Assembly: GCA_043814965.1 (NCBI GenBank)
Contig: JBDRJN010000003.1
Span: 136,677 to 200,676 of the forward strand
Direction of reading: 5' to 3'
Source of the DNA: Candidatus Omnitrophota bacterium
Lineage (GTDB): Bacteria; Omnitrophota; Gorgyraeia; Gorgyraeales; Gorgyraeaceae
Length of the DNA: 64,000 nucleotides
Under the pieces are notes generated by a model. That model worked only from the letters and a program-made list of their open reading frames with translations, did no database searches and was not told the DNA's origin. The translations under genes and the position numbers were made by a program. Shown here piece after piece: positions 2,730 through 56,600 of the stretch (position 1 is the first letter of the stretch; each line of letters opens with the position of its first letter).

Positions 2730-5312
2730 TCACCTCATCATATTTTTTAGGACAGCTTTTCCTTTTTTTAATATCTCATCTATATCCTGGCCAGGCCTTC
2801 CTCCAGCCTGGGCAAAATCCTTCCTGCCGCCGCCTTTTATGCCAAAACTCGATCCTATTTCATTAAGGATAGTTACAGAATCTATCTTGTCATCTTTTAA
2901 GTCCTGAGAATACCCGATAATCAGTGCAAGTTTTCCATCTTTTTCTGAGGCAAGAATAAAAATAGTATTTTTTGATCTACCCTTGATAGTATCAGATGTC
3001 TTTCTAAGAAGCCCCATGTCAGCATTCTTTATCTCAGAGATGATCACTTCATGGTTCCCTATTCTTTCTTTATTATCCAGCATATCGCCTATATTTGACT
3101 GTGCTATCTTCTGGCCCAACGTCTCAAGATCCTTTTCTATTCTTTTGATCTTACTGGACGACTCTTCTATGGTTCTTTCAATGTGCGCAGGGTCTGTACC
3201 TAGGATAGCCGCTATCTCCAATATCAGGTCATTTTTTTCTTTCACCTTCTTTAATGCCTCGTCGCTTGTAGCAGCCTCGATCCTTCTTATCCCGCTCGCG
3301 ATCGAAGACTCGGACAATATCTTAAATAAACCTATACTGCCTGTTTCTTTTACGTGGCATCCGCCGCAAAGCTCCTTGCTGTACTCTCCAACGCTTACCA
3401 TCCTTACTTCATCTGAATATTTCTCGCCAAAGAGCGCCATTGCGCCCTGTTTTTTTGCATCCTCTAAAGGCATTGACTTTTTATTGACTATGCTGTTCTT
3501 TTTTATGGCTCTATTTACTATTTCTTCTATTCTGGATATCTCATCGCTTGTTAAAGCCTTGAAATGCGTAAAATCGAACCTGAGCCTGTCTGGCGCTACT
3601 AATGAGCCAGCCTGTTTTACATGCTCTCCCAGGACTTTTCTAAGCGCATAGTGAAGAATATGTGTCGCTGTATGGTTCTTCTTTATTTTTTCCCTGCGGG
3701 ATGCATCGACCCTCAACAAGACCTCTTCTCCTTTTTTTAGAGAGCCTTCTTTTACAATGACTTCGTGCTTGACAGCTCCTCCGACATCAACCGCATCCTT
3801 TATTTCTGCTATATTCTTATCGTGTTTTAGTATCTGGCCTGTATCACCTACCTGTCCGCCTTTTTCACCATAAAAATTAGTCTCTTTAAAAAATAAACTA
3901 CCCTTTTCGCCTTTTTGAAGTTCTCCTACTATACTGTTATCCTTTATGAGTTCTTCTATCTTGGCCTTTATCTCGAGCCTATCTTCTATGAACCTGGTTT
4001 CGCCCAATTTTAATCTATCCTCCACTGATACGTTATCGAATATGCTGCTTTTGATCTTGCTCTTTTCCCTTGATTTAGCCCTCTGTTCCTCCATGCAATC
4101 TTCGAATTCTTTAGTATCCACTGCCTTATTATTTGATTCCACTATCTCCTTGGTCAGCTCAAGCGGAAAACCATAAGTATCATAGAGCTTAAAAGCGTCT
4201 TTTCCTGAAAGCCTTTTCGAAGCCCCCTTGATCATTTCATTTAGATTAAGCAATCCTTCTTGAAGAGTTGCCTTGAACCTGTCTTCTTCTGCTTGGACAA
4301 CCTGAGAGATGCCTTCTTTATGTTTACTGATCTCTGGGTATGGCCTTTCCATGACTTTAGCAACTACGGGAACGATTCTATATAAAAATGGCTCTTTCAG
4401 GCCAAGCGATCTTCCATACCAAAAAGCCTTTCTTATGAGCTTGCGTATCACATAACCTCTTCCTTCGTTAGAGGGCAGTACTCCATCGCTTATTGCAAAT
4501 GTCACTGCCCTTACATGGTCAGCTATCGCGCTGATATATTTTACCAGGTCTTCCTTTGGGGAGGCCTGGATAGACTCTATTGAAAGATCCTTTATCATAT
4601 TTACGATAGGCGTGAATGAATCTATCTGGAAATTCGTAGATTTACCCTGTATGACCCTTGCAATTCTTTCCAACCCCATGCCAGTATCTATGTTTTTATT
4701 TGGAAGAGGTTCTAATTTTCCTCCATCATGCCTATCAAACTGGGTAAATACCAGGTTCCAGACTTCTACGCCATCCGCCCCGCCAAAAAAAATCTCCGAG
4801 CACGGCCCGCACGGCCCATTTGGGCCTTCTGTAGGCGCGTTCGCAGGCCAAAAATTATCCTTTTCACCTAATTTCAAGATATTTTCTTTAGGGATCCTTA
4901 TAATATCTTTCCAGATACTGTAGGCTTCCGGGTCATCTTTATATACAGATACCCACAGGTCTTTTTCCTTTAACCCGAGGTCTTTTGTAAGAAATTCCCA
5001 CGCCCAGGATATAGCCTCTTTTTTAAAATAATCCCCAAATGAAAAATTCCCGAGCATCTCAAAAAATGTATGGTGCCCTGCAGTCTTTCCAACATTATAA
5101 AGGTCACCAGTGCGAAGACACTTTTGGCATGTAGCAGCCCTGCGGGAGCCTTTGACTCTTCCTAAAAATTCATCTTTAAATTGATTCATGCCAGCTCCTG
5201 TAAAAAGGAGCGTAGGGTCATTGGAAGGGACCAGCGAATCGCTCGGATGTATAGCGTGCCCTCTATCTTTGAAAAAATCTAAGAATCTATCTCTTATCTC
5301 ATCTACTATCAT
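2730..5312 (-). CDS. alaS: Alanine--tRNA ligase
   Basis: 860 aa with FTGAGMNQFKD, HHTFFEMLGNFSFGDYFK and the editing-domain HxxxH/CGGCH motifs. Confidence 0.9.
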   Translation of the reverse strand: MIVDEIRDRFLDFFKDRGHAIHPSDSLVPSNDPTLLFTGAGMNQFKDEFLGRVKGSRRAATCQKCLRTGDLYNVGKTAGHHTFFEMLGNFSFGDYFKKEAISWAWEFLTKDLGLKEKDLWVSVYKDDPEAYSIWKDIIRIPKENILKLGEKDNFWPANAPTEGPNGPCGPCSEIFFGGADGVEVWNLVFTQFDRHDGGKLEPLPNKNIDTGMGLERIARVIQGKSTNFQIDSFTPIVNMIKDLSIESIQASPKEDLVKYISAIADHVRAVTFAISDGVLPSNEGRGYVIRKLIRKAFWYGRSLGLKEPFLYRIVPVVAKVMERPYPEISKHKEGISQVVQAEEDRFKATLQEGLLNLNEMIKGASKRLSGKDAFKLYDTYGFPLELTKEIVESNNKAVDTKEFEDCMEEQRAKSREKSKIKSSIFDNVSVEDRLKLGETRFIEDRLEIKAKIEELIKDNSIVGELQKGEKGSLFFKETNFYGEKGGQVGDTGQILKHDKNIAEIKDAVDVGGAVKHEVIVKEGSLKKGEEVLLRVDASRREKIKKNHTATHILHYALRKVLGEHVKQAGSLVAPDRLRFDFTHFKALTSDEISRIEEIVNRAIKKNSIVNKKSMPLEDAKKQGAMALFGEKYSDEVRMVSVGEYSKELCGGCHVKETGSIGLFKILSESSIASGIRRIEAATSDEALKKVKEKNDLILEIAAILGTDPAHIERTIEESSSKIKRIEKDLETLGQKIAQSNIGDMLDNKERIGNHEVIISEIKNADMGLLRKTSDTIKGRSKNTIFILASEKDGKLALIIGYSQDLKDDKIDSVTILNEIGSSFGIKGGGRKDFAQAGGRPGQDIDEILKKGKAVLKNMMR

Positions 5313-17430: not shown

Positions 17431-17487
17431 GTAGGGGAGCCTTACCTGTCCTCCGTAGCTTTAGCGGAGGAGGAAGGCTCCCCTACC
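17431..17487. repeat. Palindromic element copy 2 (GTAGGGGAGCCTT...AAGGCTCCCCTAC with a 31-bp internal insert); overlaps the 3' end and stop of the GT2 gene
   Basis: Same arms as the other copies. The GT2 reading frame terminates inside it. Confidence 0.7.
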
Positions 17488-18449
17488 ACTCCCTTAAACA
17501 TTACATTTTTTATATTAACATAAGCCATATAGGTCATAAGTAAAATATCATAGCTCAATATAAAAGGAGAGTTTATTAAATAATTTTTAAAAGTATCGTT
17601 TTTCCTCATACATAAGTAGCGGTTCTTGATATATTCTTCTTTTAGTTCATCCGATAAGTAGGGGAGGCTTAAGCCTCCCCTACGATCTTTATCAGCTCCT
17701 CTAACCGCTGTCCCGCCACGTCTATGATACGCTACAGCCTTAGGAGTGTAATATGCTTTCCATCCTGCCCTGGCTGCTCTCCAGGATACATCAAGGTCTT
17801 CGTAGTACATCCTGAACCTTCTGTCAAAATATCCGTATTGGTCCTTTATATCCTCAAGCATACTTTTTCTATAAAATGCGCACGCCCCGCTCACGCCAAA
17901 TATATATTCTTCTTTATCATACTGCCCCGTACCCCGTAACCCGTAACCCGTAACCCTTTTCCCGTATCCCCTCTCGACAGGCTTTCTATTTCTTCCCAGC
18001 ATTAGTCCAGTTGAATCGATTGTGGACTTATCTTCCCGCAAGATCTTCCCTGACACCATACCGATGCTATCATCCTTACCTATTGCGCACGAAACTTCCT
18101 TTAAATAATCTTTATCCAGATATACATCATTATTGATGCAAAGTATGAATTTTCCCGAAGATCTTTTTATGCCTTCGTTATATGCTTTAGAAAAAAATAA
18201 GTTAGTTGTATTTTGAATAAGCTTTGCTTCAGGGAAATGCGTCCGCACCATCTCTACACTATTATCAGTGGAGGCATTATCTACTACAATTAATTCTATT
18301 TGTTTACCCGCATTGTTCTGTTTATCCGCATTACTCTGTTTATCCGTATTGTAGGGGAGGCTTAAGCCTCCCCTACAAGCTTTTACAGATTCCAGGCATC
18401 GCTTCAATAGATCCGCTTTATTATAATTTACAACTATTACTGATATCAT
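17442..18449 (-). CDS. Family 2 glycosyltransferase with three palindromic element copies and two tandem-repeat tracts in its reading frame
   Basis: GT2 N-terminus VIVVNYNKADLLKRCLESV...IELIVVDNASTDNS and C-terminal YHRRGGTA core. RGGLSLPY, the translated palindrome, occurs twice in the protein. Confidence 0.7.
   Translation of the reverse strand: MISVIVVNYNKADLLKRCLESVKACRGGLSLPYNTDKQSNADKQNNAGKQIELIVVDNASTDNSVEMVRTHFPEAKLIQNTTNLFFSKAYNEGIKRSSGKFILCINNDVYLDKDYLKEVSCAIGKDDSIGMVSGKILREDKSTIDSTGLMLGRNRKPVERGYGKRVTGYGLRGTGQYDKEEYIFGVSGACAFYRKSMLEDIKDQYGYFDRRFRMYYEDLDVSWRAARAGWKAYYTPKAVAYHRRGGTAVRGADKDRRGGLSLPYLSDELKEEYIKNRYLCMRKNDTFKNYLINSPFILSYDILLMTYMAYVNIKNVMFKGVVGEPSSSAKATEDR
17658..17683. 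repeat. Palindromic element copy 3 (GTAGGGGAGGCTTAAGCCTCCCCTAC), in frame inside the GT2 coding sequence
   Basis: Perfect 26-bp palindrome, translated as RRGGLSLPY. Confidence 0.75.
17925..17959. repeat. Heptanucleotide tandem repeat, about 5 copies of (C/A)CCCGTA, inside the GT2 coding sequence
   Basis: ccccgta ccccgta acccgta acccgta acccgta read directly. Encodes GYGKRVTGYGLRGTG. Confidence 0.8.
18299..18351. repeat. Three imperfect tandem copies of an 18-bp unit (TCTGTTTAYCCGYATTRY) inside the GT2 coding sequence
   Basis: Encodes the hexapeptide repeats NTDKQS, NADKQN and NAGKQ near the N-terminus of the GT2. Confidence 0.7.
18351..18376. repeat. Palindromic element copy 4 (GTAGGGGAGGCTTAAGCCTCCCCTAC), in frame in the GT2 N-terminal region
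   Basis: Identical to copy 3. Translated as ACRGGLSLPY. Confidence 0.75.
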
Positions 18450-18481: not shown

Positions 18482-18511
18482 ATGTAGGGCAGGTTTCAAC
18501 CTGCCCTACAT
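18482..18511. repeat. Palindromic element copy 5, variant ATGTAGGGCAGGTTtcAACCTGCCCTACAT, between the ABC exporter stop and the GT2 start
   Basis: Perfect palindrome with 14-bp arms. It is related to the other copies by a G-to-C change in the arm. It may double as a terminator for the ABC gene. Confidence 0.6.
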
Positions 18512-18531: not shown

Positions 18532-20307
18532 CTATGTTAAAACCTTATCCTCTGTCTGATCTCTAAATAAATCCTGGAATTCTTTATTATTGCCAAGGAG
18601 TTCTTCTACATTGCCGATCACCATCTCTCCTGAACTATTCAAAAAATACACTAGCTCTGACCGTTTTACAGTAGATAAGCGGTGGGAGACGCTGATAAGC
18701 GTGATATCCTTAGCATATCCCCTGATATTCTCTATTATCCTATCTTCACTCAGGGAATCCATGGAAGCAAATGCCTCATCAAGTATTAAGATCTTTGGCT
18801 TTTTTATAAGCGCGCGCGCAATAGCTATCTTCTGCTTTTGTCCTTCTGATATCTTACATGCATTTTCACCGATTATTGTTTCATACTTATCATGCAGCTT
18901 TTCAGTAAACTCATCTACCAGGGCTATCTTAGCGCACTTTATAACATCTTCAAAGCTAGCCAGGTTATTTCCATAAAGGATATTATTTTTTATGCTATCA
19001 TTAAAGAGGTTCGGCTCCTGCAGCGCCATTCCAATACTATTTTTAAGCGAATTTAGGGACACATCCCTAATATTTTGCCCATCTATTATTATCTCGCCTC
19101 CATCGACCTCGTACAGCCTGGCGATCAGATTCAGGATCGTGGTCTTACCCTGCCCTGAAGGCCCAGCCAAGCTAATGTGCGTTCCCCCTTTTATCTTAAG
19201 ATCGAGGCCTTTTAAAATAAGTTGATCTTTCGAGTATCCAAAATTTACTTTTTTAAATTCTATCTCGCCTTTAGTTACAATAATATATTTTGCGTCTTCC
19301 CTGTCTGCTATCTCCTCTTTTTCATTCAAGATATTCTCTACTCTCTCACATGATACAAGGCCCAGGACAGTGCTTTGAAAAAACGATATAAAGCCGTATT
19401 GCATGTTCACTAGCTGGCCTAGATACACCAGGATCGCTGTGAGAGTGCCAAAGCTTATCTCACCTCTTATCACATGATAGCCTCCATAAAATGTAATAAG
19501 CCCTATTATGACCTTATCCAATACTTTGGCTGAAAACCCGCTAAAGATATCTAGTTTTGTACTGCTTTTTTCTAGCTCAATATTGTTTTTTAAGATGTTT
19601 AGGTATTTTTCTTTTTCATCTTTTTCCTTGCCAAATACCTTTATTAAATACGAGTGAGAAAAACTCTCCTGCAGGAATTTAAATATGCTTTGAGAGCACT
19701 CTATTAGCTTCTCCCAGATCGATCTACGTTTTTTGATAAAATAATACGGCCCTATATAAAGGAATGGCGCTAAAAAAAGTGAAAATAACGCTATCTTCCA
19801 GTTTAGCTTTAATATAATAATAAATATAAAAGCAATCCTAGGGAAAAGCATCACTGCCTTTGGGGGGATGCTTGTAATAAGCGTATTTACCCTATCTATA
19901 TCGCTGCTTATCTTATAGATATTTTCACCTGTTGATCTATCTCTAAACCATGCGAGAGACAACTTATTGATCTTACTAAACACCGCATTATTTAGGCTGT
20001 ATTTGACATCCAGGCTTACTTTTTTCTCTAGATATTCCTTGAGACCTTCTATCGCGCCAAGCGCAATAAATACCAATATCCCTAGGCTAGCAAGCAGCAC
20101 AAACTGCCTCAGGTCTTTTTTTATTATCCCTTCATCAACTATTAGTTTTGTTATATATGGATTTACTACGCTTAATAAGCTCCAGAAACTACCTAATAAG
20201 ATTATTAAAACCCACTTTGCCTTGTGAGGCAGGATAAGCCTTACAAATCTAAAAAAAAGCTGGGTCTGACTTTTTGCCTGATCAAGTTTTGGCTGGAATT
20301 TTCTCAT
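18532..20307 (-). CDS. ABC exporter with fused permease and ATPase (MsbA/type I exporter-like)
   Basis: Six predicted TM helices followed by Walker A LAGPSGQGKTT, signature LSEGQKQKIAIARAL and Walker B ILILDEAFASMD. No N-terminal C39 peptidase domain. 4-bp overlap with the AbiEii gene. Confidence 0.8.
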   Translation of the reverse strand: MRKFQPKLDQAKSQTQLFFRFVRLILPHKAKWVLIILLGSFWSLLSVVNPYITKLIVDEGIIKKDLRQFVLLASLGILVFIALGAIEGLKEYLEKKVSLDVKYSLNNAVFSKINKLSLAWFRDRSTGENIYKISSDIDRVNTLITSIPPKAVMLFPRIAFIFIIILKLNWKIALFSLFLAPFLYIGPYYFIKKRRSIWEKLIECSQSIFKFLQESFSHSYLIKVFGKEKDEKEKYLNILKNNIELEKSSTKLDIFSGFSAKVLDKVIIGLITFYGGYHVIRGEISFGTLTAILVYLGQLVNMQYGFISFFQSTVLGLVSCERVENILNEKEEIADREDAKYIIVTKGEIEFKKVNFGYSKDQLILKGLDLKIKGGTHISLAGPSGQGKTTILNLIARLYEVDGGEIIIDGQNIRDVSLNSLKNSIGMALQEPNLFNDSIKNNILYGNNLASFEDVIKCAKIALVDEFTEKLHDKYETIIGENACKISEGQKQKIAIARALIKKPKILILDEAFASMDSLSEDRIIENIRGYAKDITLISVSHRLSTVKRSELVYFLNSSGEMVIGNVEELLGNNKEFQDLFRDQTEDKVLT

Positions 20308-21077
20308 TTCATGCTTTTTATATACTCACAAAAATACAGCACCTTCTTTGAATCGCTTGGTTTAAATAAAAAAGGTTCTACATCTTTTGACAAGTGTTTA
20401 AAATCCAACTTTTTACATTTTAATAAAAGTTTCTCTTTTAACTCATCTATATCCTTAATGCCTGGCTTCGCTCTTAAATAATCAAAATTAGGCCTTGCCT
20501 TGCCAAAAAGATAAATGGCATCATAAAAATCCCTCCCCATTGCGCGCTTACGTTTAAGGATAGCATATATCTTTTGCGCCAGCAATATGTCAGGCGGCAC
20601 TATATTTATCCGCAAAAATACGTCAAATTTATTTATAATAACTTTGTCAGGGGCATAATCAAAATTCTGGGGTTCAGCATCTAGCTGGATTAGTATCTTT
20701 TCCTCTTTATGCCAGGATAATCCACTTTCAAAAAGTACATTCGGGATCCTTAAATAAGCCCTGTAAGCGCCTTTAAAAACATTCCTGGCCTCTGATATAT
20801 ATCCCTGTAAGGCCAATTGCCTTTTTACTAACCCTGCCAATCGCTCAAATTCTCTTTTATTTAGCCCTAGATTATCAAAATCCAAATCTTCTGAAAACCT
20901 TGTGTTTGAATGTATAATGCGTATAGCTGTCCCTCCCATAAAAGAGAGTTTCCCCCCAAATCTTGAATTAAAAATAATCTCGAGTATTTTATACTGCAGG
21001 TATTCGCGTAGTAAATTTCTCTTAAAAACCTTAAGATATTCAGGATAAAAAGACTCTATCTCTCTTATATCAAGCAT
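20304..21077 (-). CDS. AbiEii/AbiGii-family nucleotidyltransferase toxin (type IV toxin-antitoxin)
   Basis: LSFMGGTAIRIIHSNTRFSEDLDFD matches the DUF1814/AbiEii core. 8-bp overlap with the upstream antitoxin. Confidence 0.65.
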   Translation of the reverse strand: MLDIREIESFYPEYLKVFKRNLLREYLQYKILEIIFNSRFGGKLSFMGGTAIRIIHSNTRFSEDLDFDNLGLNKREFERLAGLVKRQLALQGYISEARNVFKGAYRAYLRIPNVLFESGLSWHKEEKILIQLDAEPQNFDYAPDKVIINKFDVFLRINIVPPDILLAQKIYAILKRKRAMGRDFYDAIYLFGKARPNFDYLRAKPGIKDIDELKEKLLLKCKKLDFKHLSKDVEPFLFKPSDSKKVLYFCEYIKSMK

Positions 21078-21687
21078 GGCTCATAAACCTCAAGAAAGAC
21101 TCTGATCTTTTTCTTAATGCCTTCTGATTAAACCTCTCAAGAAACATATATAGCTTTTCTTTGCTAAGCTGCTTAAAAAACATATCCTTATTTATGCGTA
21201 AACTCGCAAAACCATCTTCATCTTTTATGTTCGGATTAATATATAAATAATCCAAAATAGCCTTTTCCATGCTGGCAATCTTAAAATATTTATCCCCATA
21301 TTTTACCAAAATATACCCAAAAAAAAGCCTGGGCGTTACAGTCCTATATATAAATTCTGCTATCCGGGTCTTGAATCTATATGTCCTGCGGGTAGAAACA
21401 GCGGTAATTCCGTAGACGCTTTCAGGGATCAACTGGTAATAAGAAAGCGCCATCTCAAAAGAAATATATGAAGGAGGATATATCTTGTTGGAGATCTCGA
21501 AAAGCGCCTTTTCATTAAGCTTTAAATCAGAAAAGACATAATACCCCCTCACTACCTTTATAATATACCCCTTATCCTGCCATTCATTCAGCCTTGTGCG
21601 GAAAAAATTACCTTTAAGGGATTTAATGTCATTAAAGGAAAATATCGTGAAGTCCTTTAGGGCATTTCTTAATTCAAGATAGTGCAT
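21070..21687 (-). CDS. AbiEi-family antitoxin / transcriptional regulator
   Basis: 205 aa immediately upstream of and overlapping AbiEii. N-terminal winged-helix-like region (RTRLNEWQDKGYIIKVVRGYYVF). Confidence 0.55.
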   Translation of the reverse strand: MHYLELRNALKDFTIFSFNDIKSLKGNFFRTRLNEWQDKGYIIKVVRGYYVFSDLKLNEKALFEISNKIYPPSYISFEMALSYYQLIPESVYGITAVSTRRTYRFKTRIAEFIYRTVTPRLFFGYILVKYGDKYFKIASMEKAILDYLYINPNIKDEDGFASLRINKDMFFKQLSKEKLYMFLERFNQKALRKRSESFLRFMSHA

Positions 21688-54079: not shown

Positions 54080-54202
54080 ATCTCAAAATATATCATATAG
54101 TTGGATAAATTACAAGGCGCATCTAACCAGGTTATCAGAATGATTTTCAAAAATCTTTGTTAGAGTAACCTGGTCAAATAACTTTTTTGGGGGGATGAAA
54201 AT

Positions 54203-54654
54203 ATGGCGTAGGCCTATAAGCCGGGTTCTGTTCCGCCCAAGGCGGATGATAGCTATCTATCTAGCCTTGGCATTGCTGCCAAGATCTTGCAACCTACCCG
54301 TCTCGCTATTACGAACGGGCCGTTCTTCTTAGCGAGACCTATTTGGTTTTGCTCCGCATAGAGATTGCCGCGTTTCACCCTAAAGAAACAGTGACGCATG
54401 CTTAAGCATTATACGTCACTAAAGAGCTTCTTTAGACTCGTCTCTGTGGCTCTCCCGAATATCAGACTTACTAGAAGCATGACGCTCGGGATCCCGAGGC
54501 ACCATTGCTTGATTTTATGTGCCGAGGGATGATCCGTCCCGAGCCAGCCATAGATATTGGCTGACGAGGGAGACGGGTATTACCCGCTATACTGCCCTGT
54601 GGAGCCCGGACTTTCCTCCCATCTATAAAGACAGGCAGCTATCCAGCCTACGCC
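54203..54654 (-). ncRNA. rnpB: RNase P RNA, bacterial type A
   Basis: Minus strand contains GGAGGAAAGUCCGGGCUCCACAGGGCAG (P4 5' strand) and ACAGAACCCGGCUUAUAGG (P4 3' strand). A P1 helix GGCGUAGGC/GCCUACGCC closes the molecule at about 452 nt. Confidence 0.88.
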
Positions 54655-55806: not shown

Positions 55807-55842
55807 AACTTTCTATCCCTTCTTTGGTTGTTACCTCTGAAT

Positions 55843-55928
55843 CTTTATGCCCCTCGCGACATACTTTCAAACAATAGTCTCTCGGGACGAATTTGCCTGT
55901 AATCACATTTCCAGCAAATTCGATGGGC
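55843..55928. repeat. tRNA-trailer repeat, copy 1 (no tRNA body; retains only TGGGC of a tRNA 3' end)
   Basis: About 86 bp almost identical to 55945-56030 and 56446-56531. Tandem with copy 2. Confidence 0.75.
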
Positions 55929-55929
55929 T

Positions 55930-56025
55930 AGTCACTGATTATTTCTTTATGCCCCTCGCGACATACTTTCAAACAATAGTCTCTCGGGACGAATTTGCCT
56001 GTAATCACATTTCCAGCAAATTCGG
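55930..56025. repeat. tRNA-trailer repeat, copy 2 (96 bp, directly 3' of tRNA-Val on the minus strand)
   Basis: Contains the hairpin CGAATTTGC-N17-GCAAATTCG. Identical to copy 3 over the full 96 bp. Confidence 0.8.
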
Positions 56026-56099
56026 TGGGCAATACTGGACTCGAACCAGTGACCTCTGCCATGTGAGGGCAGCACTCTAACCAGCTGAGCTAATTGCCC
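56026..56099 (-). tRNA. tRNA-Val (anticodon CAC)
   Basis: Reverse complement GGGCAATTAGCTCAGCTGGTTAGAGTGCTGCCCTCACATGGCAGAGGTCACTGGTTCGAGTCCAGTATTGCCCA folds as a cloverleaf: 7-bp acceptor stem, anticodon loop CUCACAU, T-loop TTCGAGT. Confidence 0.85.
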
Positions 56100-56430: not shown

Positions 56431-56526
56431 AGTCACTGATTATTTCTTTATGCCCCTCGCGACATACTTTCAAACAATAGTCTCTCGGGACGAATTTGCC
56501 TGTAATCACATTTCCAGCAAATTCGG
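56431..56526. repeat. tRNA-trailer repeat, copy 3 (96 bp, directly 3' of tRNA-Met on the minus strand)
   Basis: Identical to copy 2. Confidence 0.8.
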
Positions 56527-56600
56527 TGGGCCTGCAAGGACTTGAACCTTGGACCCTCTGATTATGAGTCAGATGCTCTAACCAACTGAGCTATGGGCCC
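56527..56600 (-). tRNA. tRNA with anticodon CAT (elongator tRNA-Met, or tRNA-Ile2 if lysidinylated)
   Basis: Reverse complement GGGCCCATAGCTCAGTTGGTTAGAGCATCTGACTCATAATCAGAGGGTCCAAGGTTCAAGTCCTTGCAGGCCCA. G1 and C72 are paired and the anticodon stem lacks three G-C pairs, so it is not an initiator. Confidence 0.8.

Follow-up and report, generated by a model that had tools for sequence, protein, structure and literature searches.

The pilin glycosyltransferase gene pglE of Neisseria carries a 7-nucleotide (nt) unit, (CAAACAC)n, within its open reading frame (ORF), and unit numbers other than multiples of three put the gene out of frame, which turns the enzyme off; its tracts span 5–34 units, and phase-variable alleles recur across species (PMC5953494). 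In Haemophilus influenzae, heptamers are tied to surface-structure genes, namely hmw1A/hmw2A and the frameshift-causing intragenic (AATTTTG)14 of strain PittAA, with 13–38 copies that mostly lie in promoters (PMC2651432). Altogether, the known phase-variable heptamer tracts number 5–38 units (PMC5953494, PMC2651432). At the lower end of the scale stand short simple repeats termed 'mutable' or 'proto-mutable', which owe their origin to sequence composition and not to selection for mutability. Mutability scales with repeat number, and 3–12 tetranucleotide copies already count as 'mutable' (PMC4235727); several Neisseria hexamer tracts are listed only at 3 copies (PMC5953494). Here we analyze a heptamer tract within a GT2 glycosyltransferase gene of a Candidatus Omnitrophota bacterium, in a stretch of 64,000 nt from contig JBDRJN010000003.1 that is hereafter called the window. 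Comparison with 119 homologues argues that this tract arose by slippage as an in-frame indel, has since become fixed and is no more than 'mutable', a reading we hold to be reasonably probable.

The tract shares with pglE a 7-nt unit inside a glycosyltransferase ORF, in which unit numbers that are not multiples of three shift the frame, but it differs in having 3.4 units in a single genome and no orthologue with the tract. Compared with the H. influenzae heptamers, it stands at the bare threshold of 3 copies. It is similar to the 'mutable' and 'proto-mutable' repeats (PMC4235727), such as the 3-copy hexanucleotides of Neisseria (PMC5953494), in its low copy number and its sporadic distribution, as well as in its probable derivation from a pre-existing cryptic repeat. 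It differs from them in that a net gain of three units was inferred directly from the homologues.

The heptamer tract and its host gene

Four features define the locus, and all of them lie on the minus strand.

17442–18449, minus strand: GT2 glycosyltransferase gene, an intact ORF of 335 amino acids (aa), assigned by Pfam Glycos_transf_2 and homologues
17925–17971, minus strand: degenerate period-7 array of seven units, encoding GYGKRVTGYGLRGTGQ
17933–17956, minus strand: uninterrupted heptamer repeat, reading (GGGTTAC)3.43 along the coding strand and CCCGTAA on the plus strand, from a census of perfect repeats
17937–17957, minus strand: extra 21 nt, residues 165–171 (RVTGYGL), from protein alignment and codon-level comparison

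On the plus strand, positions 17925–17971 read C CCCGTAC CCCGTAA CCCGTAA CCCGTAA CCCTTTT CCCGTAT CCCC, and the coding strand of the array is GGGATAC GGGAAAA GGGTTAC GGGTTAC GGGTTAC GGGGTAC GGGGCAG. The encoded peptide, G-Y-G-K-R-V-T-G-Y-G-L-R-G-T-G-Q, starts at codon 165 of 335, in the middle of the gene. An earlier inspection of the letters alone (the sequence-only reading) had counted five tandem heptanucleotides at 17925–17959. The repeat itself is real and non-random, given that its run of 17 consecutive matches at lag 7 is longer than any that arose when the window was simulated 200 times with a first-order Markov model, the maximum over lags 4–12 being 14. Furthermore, it is the sole perfect repeat in the 64-kb window with a unit of at least 5 nt and at least 3 copies. 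Tandem Repeats Finder (TRF) delimits it at 17926–17956 with a period of 7, 4.4 copies and 95% matches. The count of five is nevertheless too high, because only three units are perfect, a fourth has one mismatched base and the flanks are degenerate, and the claimed fifth unit, CCCTTTT, agrees with the CCCGTAA type at only 3 of its 7 bases.

As the sequence-only reading had held, the heptamer lies within a GT2 gene. The 335-aa ORF matches Pfam Glycos_transf_2 (PF00535) with E = 7.7e-23, and its product is identical (100%) to NCBI MFH1478492.1, from a 213-kb contig of a Candidatus Omnitrophota metagenome-assembled genome (MAG). No NCBIfam equivalog scored above its cut-off for this protein, and Rfam at gathering thresholds gave no match in or near the gene. 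Residues Asp108, Asp218 and Asp220 are invariant across the alignment. Judged by its PF00535 domain, these conserved acidic motifs and Foldseek matches, the protein is a GT2 enzyme with a predicted GT-A-like fold. The gene order GT2-rpsO-pnp is found in five genomes (the window, L001, L002, L003 and L090), followed by uppP in all four genomes whose sequence extends far enough; upstream of GT2, the window and L001 have an ABC exporter. By gene order and homology, GT2 is thus best described as a syntenic core gene (ABC exporter-GT2-rpsO-pnp-uppP) of a family that is well conserved across Omnitrophota.

We aligned 120 proteins, the window GT2 and 119 homologues, of which the best share 50%–67% identity with it and are nearly all about 285–300 aa long, vs 335 aa here. 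The loop ...ERGYGKxDxGQY..., into which the array falls, does not vary in length among 118 of the 119 homologues. In the window GT2 it is longer by 7 aa, or 21 nt, which is exactly three heptamer units; the exact placement of these 21 nt is ambiguous because of the repeat. The heptamer tract is missing in 118 of the 119 homologues and is lineage-specific: apart from the nearest relative, orthologue DNA at the loop consists of unrelated synonymous codons without a repeat. The nearest relative (protein P0006 of the sister locus L001) reads GGT TAC GGG TTA C at the same site, equal to (GGGTTAC)2, and GGTTACGGGTTAC is common only to this gene and the window gene there. Thus the slippage-type repeat in the GT2 ORF claimed earlier is genuine, and the extra 21 nt relative to the homologues represent a past change in length.

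Removing three units from the window gene yields GGA TAC GGG AAA AGG GGT ACG GGG CAG (GYGKRGTGQ), which has the family length and still holds GGxTACGGG twice, 14 nt apart. More generally, the family loop ...ERGYGKxDTGQY... can hold a cryptic period-7 pattern, in which two copies of GG(A/T)TACGGG, 14 nt apart, encode GYG and D/G-T-G in different frames. Directly beside the tract, the near-invariant Asp of xDxGQY is replaced by Gly in the window protein (residue 173). The same loop of L001/P0006 bears a separate 30-nt insertion encoding LPSYAKATEG, and the loop therefore tolerates insertions.

A motif of about 30 nt, CCTCCTMCGCYAARGCTACGGAGGRCAGG, encodes PS(S/Y)AKATE(D/G)R and occurs at 17445–17474 of the window and at about 6431–6460 of L001, that is, in the C-terminal tail of the window GT2 and in the heptamer loop of the sister-lineage GT2. 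The idea that this 'SAKATE'-type motif is an abundant dispersed element was rejected, given only 2 occurrences in about 863 kb.

Origin of the tract and the question of a switch

The comparison enables us to propose a putative model for the origin of the tract. Initially, a cryptic period-7 repeat in the codons of the loop would seed replication slippage or tandem duplication, and the G-run-rich, quadruplex-prone DNA would favor misalignment. Only alleles that differ by a multiple of three units would retain the enzyme, so that the observed allele would be the survivor. The outcome would be 21 additional nt (+7 aa, RVTGYGL) that preserve the frame and lengthen a flexible loop in a GT2 enzyme conserved among Omnitrophota. 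We infer that the tract is a by-product of sequence composition, 'mutable' in the sense of PMC4235727, and not an evolved hypermutable contingency switch. The palindromes, the triplicated 18-nt unit and the hairpin-encoded tail described below are similarly tolerated in-frame loop insertions. Two other origins were considered. A single in-frame 21-nt duplication (GYGKRVT / GYGLRGT, 16 of 21 nt identical; TRF period 21, 79% matches) does not account for the tract by itself, as the perfect 24-nt period-7 run needs further slippage, and it may have been a first step. Derivation of the heptamer from palindrome arms was rejected because the similarity of CCCCTAC to CCCGTAA/C is unconvincing.

Structure prediction is consistent with tolerated insertions. 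The AlphaFold2 (AF2) model was built from 112 sequences, an earlier model from 18 sequences having been discarded as too poor (mean predicted local distance difference test score, pLDDT, 57.8). It has a mean pLDDT of 80.6, a predicted template-modeling score (pTM) of 0.81 and a core pLDDT above 90, and a Foldseek search against the PDB returned generic GT-A glycosyltransferase matches with E of about 1e-13. A sequence search of the PDB aligned the N-terminal nucleotide-binding half only and is therefore uninformative on the heptamer loop. Model confidence is lowest at residues 160–173, the heptamer insertion, with a pLDDT below 50, and is also low at about residues 31–50 (the N-terminal insertion) and at 247–258, just before the C-terminal palindrome. 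Given that these segments hold or adjoin the insertions, all of the repeat-derived sequence falls within or next to loops whose position the model leaves unsettled.

The array is also the only G-quadruplex-type motif of the window, one being found vs 0.3 expected per window. The coding strand has seven runs of G separated by loops of 3–4 nt, within the usual definition of at least four runs of three or more G with loops of 1–7 nt. In ViennaRNA, the minimum free energy (MFE) of the local mRNA is −22.4 kcal/mol with G-quadruplexes allowed vs −11.3 kcal/mol without them. The folding is a thermodynamic prediction and the motif is unconserved in orthologues. We regard the predicted quadruplex as a by-product and not a selected element, although it may have promoted misalignment.

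Several points weigh against the reading of a fixed indel. Reaching +3 in single-unit steps implies passage via frameshifted OFF alleles, which is phase-variable behavior. Three units satisfy the screening cut-off for units of 6–9 nt (PMC2651432, PMC5953494), and one pentanucleotide is listed as hypermutable already at 3 or more copies (PMC4235727), so that appreciable slippage is conceivable here. In addition, the G-quadruplex motif could push instability beyond what the copy number predicts, the copy number was read from a single genome, and the GT2 gene borders a radical-SAM / GT4 / Wzy_C cluster.

The foremost alternative is a true contingency switch, in which slipped-strand changes in GGGTTAC number toggle the glycosyltransferase ON (0, 3 or 6 units) or OFF (any other number) and thereby vary a surface or secreted glycan, for example against phage or predator pressure. 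We consider this unlikely, although part of it agrees with the data. In simulated alleles, the reading frame stays open with 0, 3 or 6 units, and alleles of 1, 2, 4 or 5 units run into a stop at 172–190 aa, upstream of the conserved Glu217-Asp218. A change of a single unit would hence alter expression by frameshift, and the claim that gain or loss of a unit shifts the GT2 frame was borne out, with ±1–2 units truncating the protein. The tract, at 3.43 units, just reaches the 3 units that phase-variation surveys use as a permissive screening minimum for 7-mers (PMC2651432, PMC5953494), a length change at its site has already happened in this lineage, and the gene borders the glycan / radical-SAM cluster with its GT4 and Wzy_C genes. 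Neisseria pglE provides a precedent for a glycosyltransferase with intragenic heptamer switching (PMC5953494).

However, the classic contingency-locus configuration that the sequence-only reading saw here was not supported by the comparison. The perfect units number only 3.43, short of the established ranges of 5–34 in pglE and 13–38 in hmw. The tract lies mid-gene, is absent in 118 of 119 homologues, is not conserved as DNA, and is carried by a conserved syntenic gene adjoining rpsO-pnp. Recurrence of such tracts, as in a phasome, was found neither among the homologues nor in the window or related DNA: the window and about 800 kb of related DNA hold no further repeat-based candidate loci, the window has no G/C homopolymer of 8 or more, and no simple repeat with a 4–9-nt unit exceeds 3.6 copies in about 863 kb (the window plus 118 loci, mostly from Omnitrophota). 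Furthermore, a search of 5.8 billion proteins and of JGI metagenome contigs revealed no variant allele or frameshifted fragment. Siblings sought in the same protein set, in the JGI contigs and by exact cluster look-up included none closer than about 62%–67% identity; the GT2 protein is a singleton cluster at 90% identity, and its best JGI metagenome match is 57%.

A narrower version, a working low-copy ON/OFF switch boosted by a quadruplex on the G-rich coding strand and toggling a conserved envelope or secreted-glycan glycosyltransferase, strikes us as improbable. Negative GC skew suggests that the coding strand could be the lagging-strand template.

Similarly doubtful is relaxed constraint with slow decay, in which the heptamer, the palindromes and the 18-nt repeat would be accumulating as junk while the gene loses its function. 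Of 121 near-invariant columns, the window GT2 differs from its family at 14, the highest count among 112 sequences (median 3), and these include the Asp of xDxGQY, replaced by Gly next to the tract. It carries three separate repeat-derived insertions and is about 40 aa longer than its orthologues. Relaxed constraint on this copy is possible. Nevertheless, the ORF is intact, and all 36 alignment-invariant columns, including Asp108, Asp218 and Asp220, are kept and fall outside the inserted loops. Every insertion preserves the frame and is located in a low-confidence loop. The sister protein P0006 also departs at 9 columns, and part of the signal is therefore clade divergence.

A structural role, in which a G-quadruplex in DNA or mRNA modulates the transcription, translation or replication of GT2, is very improbable. 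The sole G-quadruplex-type motif in 64 kb and a predicted quadruplex that dominates the local mRNA fold speak for it, but this evidence is an in-silico prediction, the other orthologues have no G-run array at the site, the nearest relative is without a four-run, short-loop motif, and a one-off motif is the expected look of a slippage by-product. Finally, an assembly or sequencing artefact is scarcely credible: the source is a MAG and the tract was read from its assembly, but at 24–31 nt it is far below read length, the frame of an otherwise well-conserved gene is kept, and an independently assembled sister genome has two units at the same site. Overall, we regard the tract as a short coding-sequence repeat of an ordinary kind; what is unusual is the copy of the conserved Omnitrophota GT2 gene around it, which is laden with repeats.

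Palindromes and the 18-nt repeat of the GT2 gene

The remaining repeat-derived features of the gene and its surroundings are as follows.

18301–18352, minus strand: imperfect in-frame 18-nt repeat, 2.9 copies with 82% matches (TRF), encoding NTDKQS NADKQN NAGKQI
18351–18376, unstranded: perfect 26-nt palindrome GTAGGGGAGGCTTAAGCCTCCCCTAC, in frame as RGGLSLPY, in the N-terminal insertion
17658–17683, unstranded: identical 26-nt palindrome, in frame as RRGGLSLPY, in the C-terminal variable loop
17431–17486, unstranded: hairpin belonging to the same family but longer, its arms being GTAGGGGAGCCTT / AAGGCTCCCCTAC, and encoding the C-terminal tail GEPSSSAKATEDR
18482–18511, unstranded: related palindrome, ATGTAGGGCAGGTT..AACCTGCCCTACAT, situated upstream of the GT2 start codon within the intergenic spacer
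17–42: related hairpin elsewhere in the window

The sequence-only reading had described an 18-bp repeat at 18299–18351 that would vary protein length without a frameshift. The repeat is real and in frame, at 18301–18352, but it does not look like a separate device for length variation. It belongs to a 63-nt palindrome-containing insertion: the N-terminal palindrome and the 18-nt repeat together make up an insertion of 21 aa that is missing in all 119 homologues. Every 18-nt unit holds a TGYGGRTAA-like 9-mer, and the offset of this 9-mer in the first unit equals the palindrome-flank offset elsewhere. We infer that the 18-bp repeat is part of the inserted element or arose by slippage of its flank.

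Four of the five full hairpins of the 64-kb window cluster in or around the GT2 gene, and the hairpin at 17431–17486 spans the GT2 stop codon (17442–17444). The two 26-nt palindromes share the loop variant GCTTAAGC, which other copies rarely have. The distance between them is 693 nt, which is divisible by 3, and the catalytic core lies in between. Because both are palindromic, they form mutual direct and inverted repeats, so that deletion or inversion between them is possible in principle, a point we offer as speculation.

We scanned species-representative genomes for GTAGGGGAG-N8-CTCCCCTAC and found it in at least 106 stretches, mostly Omnitrophota MAGs and often with many copies per genome. 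Among the matches listed, many copies come from a single MAG, the loop GTTTAAAC occurs in 78 of 114 palindrome copies, and 19% of the copies lie in ORFs of at least 150 aa, vs 87% of random positions. In-ORF copies among these same matches nearly always read xRGGLxLPY, which is the sole stop-free frame for the common loop. Again among the matches listed, about 19% of the copies have TTATCCACA or TGTGGATAA (with at most 1 mismatch) 2–3 nt outside the palindrome, vs a background of 0.2%. These 9-mers are the DnaA-box consensus, and they form outer arms in L021, L023, L029, L030, L033, L043, L046 and others.

Palindromes of this kind recall REP/REPIN elements and the Rickettsia palindromic elements (RPEs), which insert in frame into protein genes. 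The features compared here are those reportedly described by Nunvar 2010, Bertels and Rainey 2011, and Ogata 2000. The palindromes of the GT2 gene, as distinct from the heptamer, resemble REP/REPIN elements and RPEs in being short, of the GTAG...CTAC type, dispersed, present in many copies and mostly intergenic, and they resemble RPEs in their occasional in-frame tolerance in protein loops. They differ in that the element is a perfect 26-nt palindrome with DnaA-box-like outer arms in about 19% of the copies among the matches listed, and in that its presence at one GT2-family site recurs across species. With a GTAG head, many copies per genome and a mostly extragenic distribution, the 26-nt elements show the hallmarks of REP sequences, and from their sequence distribution their behavior is best described as REP-like, and as RPE-like where a copy is occasionally tolerated in frame. 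Searching the literature for the string itself, or for Omnitrophota together with 'palindromic', brought up nothing relevant.

At the C-terminal site (17658–17683), many orthologues encode the same type of peptide. A full palindrome-type peptide (e.g., CRGALRLPY or RRGGLNLPY) is present in 13 of the 120 proteins, including the window GT2, and the (L/F)PY motif is kept in 51 of the 120. L090 has the canonical palindrome at this site (3929–3954), and L003 has a perfect palindrome there (3073–3098) with a different, compensated stem, GTAGACCAGGTTTAAACCTGGTCTAC. These sequence comparisons point to an old or recurrent insertion at the site. An ancient insertion with gene conversion could be the cause, as could repeated insertion or selection for a hairpin within the gene.

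The wider window and implications

Beyond the GT2 locus, the region from about 20000 to 44000 has a GC content of 0.29–0.36 vs about 0.40–0.44 in its flanks, and contains three radical-SAM genes, a GT4 glycosyltransferase gene and genes for a Wzy_C protein and an NTP_transf_5 protein. The region is probably a variable island, either of the envelope/glycan or of the peptide-modification type. At 20304–21687, a gene for an AbiEii-type nucleotidyltransferase toxin and an adjacent small ORF separate the radical-SAM genes from the ABC exporter; in the sister genome L001, the radical-SAM genes directly adjoin the exporter. Farther along, the minus strand encodes a bacterial class A RNase P RNA at 54201–54654 (Rfam, 190.9 bits). 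A sequence of about 100 nt occurs three times at 55842–56030 and 56440–56526, as two tandem copies with 98% identity and one more copy, and each set is directly downstream of a minus-strand tRNA gene (56026–56099 and 56527–56600).

On the likeliest reading, that of a slippage-derived and now fixed indel, the tract itself has little import. It is a tidy case of how a cryptic codon-level repeat (GYG...DTG) can seed slippage and lengthen a protein loop by whole repeat units, and it cautions against calling a locus a contingency locus on no more than three heptamer copies in a glycosyltransferase. Were the tract a true switch, phase variation by repeats would no longer be confined to host-adapted pathogens but would reach an environmental, uncultivated phylum. 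In the narrower, quadruplex-boosted version, no repeat-based contingency locus would have been described in Omnitrophota before it; the locus would have only recently emerged from a cryptic repeat, and its gene would also be one into which REP-like palindromes have recurrently landed in frame. The more useful by-product of this study is the dispersed GTAG...CTAC family of Omnitrophota, which is sometimes flanked by DnaA-box-like 9-mers, tolerated in frame in proteins and recurrent at one site of this GT2 family.

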